Virus record (IMG/VR): IMGVR_UViG_3300030397_000629
Source of the DNA: a virus
Length of the DNA stretch: 64,000 nt
Direction: 5' to 3' (one strand)
Both the position numbers and the translations under genes were made by a program. Every line of letters starts with the position of its first letter. Position 1 is the first letter of the stretch. The notes beneath the pieces are model-generated. The model worked only from the letters and a program-made list of their open reading frames with translations. It was not told where the DNA came from and made no database searches. Below, piece after piece: positions 2,889 through 39,780 of this stretch.

Positions 2889-2941
2889 TTAACGGTTAAT
2901 TTTGCCGGGCTGATTAAGGCCCGGCTGATGATCAAAATAAT

Positions 2942-11078: not shown

Positions 11079-11092
11079 TTAACCGTTAAGCA

Positions 11093-15216: not shown

Positions 15217-15260
15217 TTCGTAAGTCGTCTTATTTTTCTATAACTGAGATTATTTAAAAA

Positions 15261-15300
15261 GGGCGCTCATTCATTACGATTGAGCGCCCTTGTTTACTTT
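15261..15300 (+). terminator. terminator ending the tail operon
   Basis: GGGCGCTCA/TGAGCGCCC stem with T-rich tail and A-run upstream. Confidence 0.7.
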
Positions 15301-16147: not shown

Positions 16148-16630
16148 TTACTTTTCTTTTAATTTTACGTAATAATCAATTGAGTCAACAAGTTTGTCAC
16201 GTATTACTTGCTTACCCTCTTTTGAGCATGCAACTGTGTCGCCGTAATACCAACTGAAAGTCTCATCAAAAAACATTTCTTTCACTTGCTCAGGACGCCA
16301 ATTGTGAAGGATTGTTCTAGCCATCACGTAAACGGTTTGCTGAGCAAGATTATCTTTTCTAAAGTGCAGAGTCAGGTGCTCTTTTTTAGACTTTTTAATA
16401 TCAGCCGCATTGTGCTCAACAATCCAAGCTAAAAAGTCATGAGGTATTGTATTAGCCTTTATTAAATCAATACACTTTGACCAAAAGACAATGTTGTTAA
16501 TCTTGAAATTTTCTTTTATCCAAGTCTCAGCCTCTTGCATTTTAGGGCATGTCTCAATGTTTTTTTGGTCAACTTCTTCAAGCTTTTTTACCATGTAAAG
16601 CCAAAGTTTAAGGTTTGAATTTTCTTGCAT
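16148..16630 (-). CDS. hypothetical protein
   Basis: 160-aa ORF, CAACCGTTAA motif upstream. Confidence 0.7.
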   Translation of the reverse strand: MQENSNLKLWLYMVKKLEEVDQKNIETCPKMQEAETWIKENFKINNIVFWSKCIDLIKANTIPHDFLAWIVEHNAADIKKSKKEHLTLHFRKDNLAQQTVYVMARTILHNWRPEQVKEMFFDETFSWYYGDTVACSKEGKQVIRDKLVDSIDYYVKLKEK

Positions 16631-16668: not shown

Positions 16669-16749
16669 GCGGTCAGAGGCGGCGCACAGTCCTCTTTGAT
16701 ATTATGCACCCGTTTTGATCATTGTGGCCTTGGTGCAATCAATAACCGC
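16669..16749 (-). ncRNA. putative structured RNA element
   Basis: minus-strand pairings GCGGTTA/TGACCGC, TTGAT/ATCAA, TGCACC/GGTGCA, AGAGG/CCTCT in an intergenic gap. Confidence 0.4.
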
Positions 16750-16753
16750 CGTT

Positions 16754-16865
16754 GAGCAGGGAAAGGTTTTGAACCTCAATTGTCACAGTGCAAAGCACCT
16801 TTTCTTTCTTACTCTTGGCGGCACTTAGGCCCGCCCTCATTGCCTGAAAAGGCAACTCACCTGCT
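16754..16865 (-). ncRNA. tRNA-like (non-canonical cloverleaf) RNA
   Basis: acceptor AGCAGG/CCTGCT, D-like stem TTGCCT/AGGCAA, anticodon-like stem GGCGG/CCGCC, T-loop GAGG-TTCAAAA-CCTT; oversize variable region, no CCA. Confidence 0.5.
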
Positions 16866-16896
16866 GATTCCTTAAAATATAGTTAGTTAACGATAA

Positions 16897-17280
16897 TTAA
16901 TAAAAGTAGGCATGAGCACAAACCAACCCGGTTGCTTGATCTTTTGCAACGTTTCTCACCCTCACTTTCTCGCCGCTCGTCAATACAAACTGCTCTGTGC
17001 CTATCTTCTCAAGTTGCTCTGTGTAGTCTCTTTTTAAAAAGTAAGTAGAATCGTAGGCAATCTTGCCGCCAGTGTACTCGTCTCCATACCAAACATGCTT
17101 TTGATAAAGTGAAGGCGTTGGACTTGTGTCGAAAATTTTTATCACAGGAATCCTATCGTAAAGCTCAGTAAAAGCCTTTATTTTCCTTTTCAGGTTTGGA
17201 ATGTCTGTCAATGGGAAAGAAAAAAGAGAGTTGTCAACTATAAAATGTTGCGCTGATTTAAAATGAGTTCCGTTTTTCAT
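16897..17280 (-). CDS. hypothetical protein
   Basis: 127-aa ORF directly below the repeated promoter at 17292. Confidence 0.7.
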   Translation of the reverse strand: MKNGTHFKSAQHFIVDNSLFSFPLTDIPNLKRKIKAFTELYDRIPVIKIFDTSPTPSLYQKHVWYGDEYTGGKIAYDSTYFLKRDYTEQLEKIGTEQFVLTSGEKVRVRNVAKDQATGLVCAHAYFY

Positions 17281-17291
17281 TACTTATGTTT

Positions 17292-17350
17292 TTAATCGTT
17301 AACTATCAATTACAATACAAACATACTAACAAAAATGTTACCGTGCAAGT
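17292..17350 (-). promoter_or_regulatory. repeated early promoter unit with operator
   Basis: CAAACATA on + strand (TATGTTTG on -), CTAACA-AAAA-TGTTAC 17326-17341, TGCAA -33. Confidence 0.8.
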
Positions 17351-39622: not shown

Positions 39623-39780
39623 CTATGTGAGATATTTATTAAATTGCACCTGCTAAAACAATCGGCTCTTATTACACCAACTATGTCATCATTCGCCTCT
39701 ATTGGTTTTTTCTCTTTTTGGTAGTATCCAAAAGCCGGGCCTTAATCAGCCCGGCTTTCTGATTTTAATGGCACACCTAT

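Follow-up and report, generated by a model that had tools for sequence, protein, structure and literature searches.

The locus raises the question whether a tRNA-shaped stretch of 112 nt in a non-coding gap of a phage genome is a tRNA, an RNA derived from a tRNA, or a set of ordinary hairpins that happens to take this shape. The window analyzed here (64,000 nt, IMG/VR record IMGVR_UViG_3300030397_000629) contains almost all of the genome of an uncultured tailed phage, 65.6 kb in size, that comes from an aquatic metagenome. Capsid relatives of the phage include Phaeodactylibacter and Saprospiraceae sequences, and its promoters are of the Bacteroidota -33/-7 type, for which a consensus has been described (PMC6847099). 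The element sits in a 266-nt gap of a leftward block inserted between the tail and head genes. Three ORFan genes, encoding 127, 160, and 193 aa, make up this block together with a possible ORF of 72 aa and a hairpin that resembles a terminator. Leftward inserts at the same place are frequent in related phages and have different content; no informative relatives of the proteins of this block were detected. The relevant features are, from upstream to downstream:

17318-17348, minus strand: TTG ... TATGTTTG, consensus early promoter from which the block starts; the promoter unit is a repeated one in this phage
16897-17280, minus strand: upstream gene of 127 aa, no detectable relatives
16874-16881, minus strand: TATATTTT, 8 nt upstream of the element, which may be a degenerate -7 box of the Bacteroidota type (TAnnTTTG with one mismatch)
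16754-16865, minus strand: tRNA-shaped element, 112 nt, five helices, in the gap between two ORFan genes
16857-16865, minus strand: acceptor-like stem, 5' strand, 6 pairs, U7 bulged or mismatched, G8 and A9 able to pair
16839-16856, minus strand: D-like hairpin, 7 bp, loop UUUC without GG, sequence unlike tRNA D arms
16817-16835, minus strand: anticodon-like arm, GGCGG/CCGCC, 5 G-C pairs, 9-nt loop with middle triplet TAA
16778-16816, minus strand: variable region, about 38 nt, purine-rich, small hairpin at 16787-16799
16763-16777, minus strand: T-like arm, 4 bp, loop TTCAAAA, the sole T-arm motif in the window
16755-16762, minus strand: acceptor-like stem, 3' strand, CCCTGCT, then C-AAC
16739-16840, minus strand: overlapping ORF of 33 codons whose start codon falls within the D hairpin; its codon score is ambiguous
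16148-16630, minus strand: downstream gene of 160 aa, no detectable relatives
15256-15291, minus strand: hairpin with a T run that resembles a terminator and ends the block

Transcription across the element would most likely come from the consensus early promoter, which lies about 450 nt upstream. The putative -7 box is weak, as the window contains 173 one-mismatch sites of this sort. At positions 17287-17350, where the repeated early promoter unit lies, contigs are interrupted and joined again, which points either to a repeat-caused assembly effect or to recombination between units. All early gaps of this phage are hairpin-rich. GCCCGGC hairpins come after many early stop codons, and an identical 23-nt hairpin sequence is found twice in opposite orientation (window positions 2904-2926 and 39733-39755). 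The near-palindrome TTAACCGTTAA has 32 copies window-wide compared with 0.09 expected (e.g., at 11079, 22727, 45808, 51948, and 58140). In most cases it precedes a start codon by 0-15 nt, and both orientations occur; it could be a site to which a phage protein binds or else a translation signal.

The anatomy given in the earlier note was recovered in every part: the AGCAGG/CCTGCT ends on the minus strand, the 6-bp D-like stem with its 4-nt loop, the GGCGG/CCGCC stem whose 9-nt loop is centered on TAA, the variable region with a GTGC/GCAC hairpin, the T-loop TTCAAAA and a length of 112 nt with no encoded CCA, the 3' end being C-AAC. To this description we add that the D-like hairpin consists of six Watson-Crick pairs plus a closing G-U, that the hairpin in the variable region has a 3-nt loop while the rest of this region is mostly unpaired, and that a linker of 3 nt, extra in comparison with canonical tRNA, separates the D and anticodon arms. 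The mismatches at the stem ends described in the note are a matter of register. They are present when the top of the molecule is read as 7/5, with two mismatches; alternatively the same letters form a complete 12-bp acceptor and T branch with a TTCRA loop in the 8/4 register with one bulge, and the minimum-energy fold indeed has eight acceptor pairs with U7 bulged and four T-stem pairs. The mean pairing probability of all five helices is about 0.9 when the element is folded alone and 0.64-0.91 in two longer contexts, and it falls to 0.43-0.82 in a third. Contigs from three DNA runs of one study, possibly the source study, contained no sequence variants of the element. A second folded stretch lies 3' of it (window 16670-16752, minus strand, GGCGG ... 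CCGCC and TGCACC/GGTGCA); its strands can pair with the anticodon-like and variable hairpins of the element, and alternative folds are possible.

The element is not a decoding tRNA. Neither ARAGORN, which the earlier note named as a check, nor the Rfam tRNA model matched it, which supports this statement. ARAGORN did not recover it even at -ps70, its relaxed thresholds and its intron, mitochondrial, and tmRNA modes yielding noise only, and no Rfam family matched at E<=10, including the tRNA-Sec family RF01852. In 60 real tRNAs of the loci studied here the D-loop GG, U8, U33, and the pyrimidine at position 60 are found in 100%, 97%, 98%, and 98%, respectively; the element lacks all four, having the loop UUUC, G8 (U in the shifted register), C33, and A60, and in addition C73. 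Instead of a canonical 7-nt anticodon loop one base after the D arm it has the 9-nt loop and the 3-nt linker. G18 and G19 make the elbow between D loop and T loop (PMC7609411), leucylation requires this elbow together with A73 (PMC9976931), and RNase P measures from it and CCA enzymes use it too (PMC4919913). The missing GG removes the elbow that is read by RNase P and other tRNA rulers. The triplet TAA is probably not a useful leucine anticodon either, because the stems are closer to initiator tRNA-fMet than to tRNA-Leu. With C3-G70 in place of G3-U70, no CCA and no hit in ARAGORN -m -ps70, the traits of a tmRNA are also absent. A reading with an intron (anticodon stem AGGGC with GCTTT) was discarded on account of G32, G33, and the lack of a tRNA score, and an attP remnant was rejected as the main reading as both ends are present and no close host tRNA match exists. 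An attP-like 3' half of a tRNA-Thr(TGT)-like sequence was seen in a complete related phage (L328 / L332, G166:52795-52861). The earlier inference had been of a tRNA mimic rather than a decoding tRNA; the second half is thus borne out, and of the first half the non-decoding character stands, whereas a functional mimic finds no homologue, no partner gene and no GG elbow in its favor.

We then asked whether the layout exceeds what chance would provide. The folding energy gives a z-score of -1.2, and 21 of 200 shuffles fold as well. Real tRNAs often beat their shuffles no better; among 40 real tRNAs 15% score weaker than the element. Shuffles that fold equally well had been put forward as a refutation, and here the answer is divided: the energy does not rise above the shuffles, yet only 0.7% of them close into a multiloop with four hairpins. 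The four-arm layout is the better statistic. It occurs once in the window, and the number of descriptor matches per simulated 64-kb window is 0.0003 when the D arm must be Sec-like and 0.012 when any D arm is allowed, corresponding to 0.03% and 1.2% of simulated windows; another run of the simulation gave similar values. These rates are lower bounds as the descriptors were written after the element had been seen. At 150 real T-arm sites in other phage DNA the Sec-like layout was not found. The tRNA-like layout is thus probably, not certainly, more than chance.

Searches for homologues of the element were negative. Pattern scans of viral contigs gave chance matches only, blastn against annotated phages and all fetched loci returned nothing, and a structure model built from the single sequence (R1) found no homologue in the window, in 16 capsid-related records, in 151 Saprospiraceae genomes, or in 151 genomes of the order. 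The best R1 matches (L166, L326, L222, L229-L235) were rejected as antisense to genes, pattern-only matches or other folds. Likewise a 91-nt "family" of 17 contigs sharing both ends of the element turned out to lie antisense to a structural gene that varies synonymously. The scans also brought up tRNA-shaped RNAs of other phages that ARAGORN does not report (L169:6228-6333, L175:7320-7425, L188:1463-1578, L201:747-837, L210:1523-1617, and L212:6293-6411); their tops are normal and their anticodon domains enlarged or odd, and the RNA of L175 may be a tRNA-Met interrupted by an intron behind the anticodon. Some phage initiator tRNAs carry an additional hairpin in the D loop and a long variable region (L316:5696-5800, L317, L319, L324, and L325); they have CAU and CCA, yet are missed by ARAGORN, and long variable arms are found in L315, L318, L320, and L323.

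A scan match gave a lead to the possible origin of the element: the 3' part of a phage tRNA-Met(CAT) agrees with it at 21 of 23 letters. As this match had been selected with the element's own letters, the idea was tested on independent sets. Initiator tRNAs of the Saprospiraceae, the probable host family, were collected by a pattern on their anticodon side and compared over 48 positions of the acceptor, anticodon arm, and T arm. The element matches them at 27-31 of the 48 positions (26 for one variant) and matches 28 other isotypes, taken from one family member, at no more than 24. Compared with random cloverleaves of the same geometry this corresponds to p 0.001-0.006 for fMet alone and to p 0.03-0.14 when any isotype may win. 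That fMet could be named in advance follows from the related phages, in which all three lone tRNAs are of the initiator type, a reason that was found afterwards. On a profile of initiator tRNAs from the host family and related phages the element scores 2.1 bits, a level typical of real tRNAs of other isotypes (median -1.2) and far higher than the mean of -32 to -40 for random cloverleaves that share its geometry (p 0.0006-0.005). A genome-wide test of the initiator resemblance by sequence only was not significant, and a covariance model of host initiators (R2) did not list the element at E<=10, though it found other degenerate phage tRNA-like RNAs.

The lone tRNAs come from 3 of 15 capsid-related phage records (L327 in G160, L330 in G161, and L331 in G158) and are all Met(CAT), with 1:72 unpaired, G2-C71 and C3-G70. 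In these Bacteroidota-type phages just two G-C pairs stand beside the anticodon loop of this tRNA. The carriers are distant relatives (capsid identity 32-34%), and the closest complete relative (55%) is without a tRNA. The L331 tRNA has T7 and the T-stem strand CCTTT in common with the element, so the two junction defects of the element would be explicable as a few substitutions. Two of the three lone tRNAs are located 3 nt behind a perfect TAnnTTTG, and the one-mismatch copy of the element is 8 nt upstream of it. With initiator tRNA-fMet (RF00005; Saprospiraceae and the three phage tRNAs) the element shares G2-C71, C3-G70, G5-C68, C28-G42, G29-C41, G30-C40, G31, C32, A51-U63, G52-C62, A57, the 12-bp top and the preceding -7-like box; its CCCTGCT is identical to positions 66-72 of one host-family initiator variant. 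In the canonical register C28 G29 G30 G31 C32 and C40 C41 G42 of the anticodon-like arm match the host-family initiator, and C33 and G39 differ. Of the initiator stem pairs G2-C71, C3-G70, G29-C41, and G30-C40 are present and 31-39 is broken, a resemblance with p values of 0.005-0.14 that the model R2 did not pick up. The determinants of an initiator are a CAU anticodon, an unpaired 1:72 and A73 (PMC9976931); the element has UAA, a paired A1-U72, and C73. It further differs in C33, the unpaired G31-G39, A60, the missing CCA, the 7-bp hairpin without GG that replaces the D arm, and the 38-nt variable region.

These comparisons suggest, and we put this forward tentatively as the best explanation, that the element is a decayed and partly remodelled copy of the initiator tRNA gene that some related phages carry singly. 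In support, the four-arm layout is rare by chance and the Saprospiraceae initiator tRNA is the closest isotype, and the loss of universal features together with the absent homologues fits decay. Against it, the initiator idea arose only after a match had been found with the element's letters. The D hairpin is perfectly paired and yet resembles no initiator D arm, and no counterpart exists for the 38-nt variable region, so that simple decay leaves the hairpin and this region unexplained.

A chance cloverleaf, i.e., an untranslated spacer in which two ordinary intergenic hairpins lie between a T-loop-like word and short complementary ends, is a somewhat unlikely account. It draws on the energy that does not exceed that of shuffles, on the hairpins filling every early gap of the phage, and on the likeness of the GGGCCT-AA hairpin to others in the genome (I25) and to an intergenic hairpin of an unrelated phage (L222). 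The T-loop overlaps AAACCTT, a word common before start codons of this phage, tRNA-like ends can come about by chance as the antisense family of 17 contigs demonstrates, and a loose layout found in about 1% of windows implies many instances over a large scan. However, the strict layout is met with in 0.03% of windows only, the element lies wholly within a non-coding gap and its stem letters are more tRNA-like than those of random cloverleaves. Chance keeps part of its credibility because the descriptors are post hoc, the gaps are rich in hairpins and the same two ends arose by chance in one control. Very unlikely, in our estimate, is a protein gene of 33 codons (16840-16739) as the real feature, with lysine- and glutamate-rich codons explaining the purine-rich variable region. 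The frame is open and has an ATG, and just 5% of wrong-frame stop-free windows score as high; however, 90% of true gene windows score higher, no homologue was found, the ORF is not a called gene and its start codon lies inside the 7-bp hairpin rather than in one of the A-rich start regions usual for this phage, structure being unfavorable to initiation in Bacteroidota (PMC6847099).

Two further readings grant the element a role. It is unlikely to be a functional non-decoding mimic excised from the early transcript, acting as decoy or competitor for host enzymes on initiator tRNA or as RNase P/Z punctuation. The exact 12-bp branch, the well-defined helices, the early-operon position, and the retained CGGGC/CCG anticodon stem would be expected of such an RNA. 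A decoy is plausible in principle, since host VapC enzymes target tRNA-fMet by cutting it and a role against nucleases of this kind has been proposed for phage tRNAs (PMC10264068); other phages do have initiator tRNAs that are remodelled, as well as tRNA-shaped RNAs. However, the GG elbow used by RNase P and CCA enzymes is missing (PMC4919913), the 16 related phage records and searches of about 300 genomes of the host order revealed no conservation, and the proteins scanned include no tRNA-handling or defense-related partner. Moreover the anticodon loop differs from that of fMet at five of positions 33-38; no part is more changed than this loop, the one a nuclease would read. The more specific proposal, in which a Bacteroidota phage has made its initiator tRNA gene into an uncharged, elbow-less decoy whose D hairpin is Sec-like and whose top is 8/4, expressed early against host nucleases or factors aimed at tRNA-fMet, we consider slightly less probable again. 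Finally, a working unusual tRNA of the allo-tRNA kind, with a UAA anticodon decoding or miscoding UUA, is extremely improbable. It could appeal to the 8/4 branch, the long D stem with tetraloop, the long variable region, and the UAA anticodons of some allo-tRNAs (PMC5389517); C33, the 9-nt loop, the three extra nucleotides between the D and anticodon arms, the absent GG, C73, the unstructured variable region, and the lack of a score with the tRNA or tRNA-Sec models all speak against it.

To sum up, the tRNA-like shape is real and the element is not a decoding tRNA; a relic, and not an RNA selected as a decoy, is the probable reading. As such a relic it would be co-transcribed in the early leftward operon from the promoter at 17348, perhaps with some weak additional transcription from the degenerate box at 16881, and the transcript would fold into the five helices. 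Having lost CAU, the 1:72 mismatch, A73, CCA, and the D-loop GG, the RNA would receive neither an amino acid nor a formyl group (determinants in PMC9976931) and would have no use on the ribosome. At most it may be a folded mRNA spacer that affects the stability or processing of the operon mRNA. A relic would testify, on a modest scale, to the loss of a tRNA gene within a group of phages some of which keep a lone initiator tRNA, and this modest reading is the likelier one because a single sequence is at hand. If the element were a functional derivative of tRNA-fMet, it would mark a route from replacement tRNA to pure decoy and a class of RNAs that tRNA scanners miss.

Elements of the tRNA-like and pseudo-tRNA kind are already known in phages (PMC10690425, PMC5389517), and the element can be compared with several systems. 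The allo-tRNAs have 8/4 or 9/3 branches and include inactive forms with a five-stem junction (Mukai et al., PMC5389517); the 12-bp branch of the element can likewise be read as 8/4, and both have a long D stem with tetraloop, a long variable region, five stems, and defects that destabilize stems. Unlike the element, however, allo-tRNAs were found through their similarity to the tRNA-Sec model, have G73 or U73 and a variable arm that is paired, and are often located close to toxin-antitoxin genes; the element has C73 and no Rfam match at E<=10, and its long variable region is not a paired arm. The tRNA-Sec-like geometry proposed in the earlier note is real as far as the D arm is concerned (6-bp stem, 4-nt loop; PMC7609411), which is the only likeness to tRNA-Sec. 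The element carries no Sec features: it has no UCA, a branch of 12 rather than the 13 bp of common forms, no GG and no Rfam match.

With the phage and bacterial Y RNAs (YrlA; PMC4201824) and with further tRNA-like structures of phages (PMC10690425) the element shares a non-decoding tRNA shape of about 110 nt. It differs from Y RNA in having no GNCGAAG motif (GNCGAAN0-1G is absent from its sequence), no Rfam match and no homologues; the neighboring proteins give no TROVE match, and the Ro60 gene that would be expected within 4 kb of a Y RNA is not among the proteins scanned. The element is a singleton without evidence of selection. What sets it apart from the known phage tRNA-like RNAs is the missing D-loop core combined with a possible descent from an initiator tRNA.
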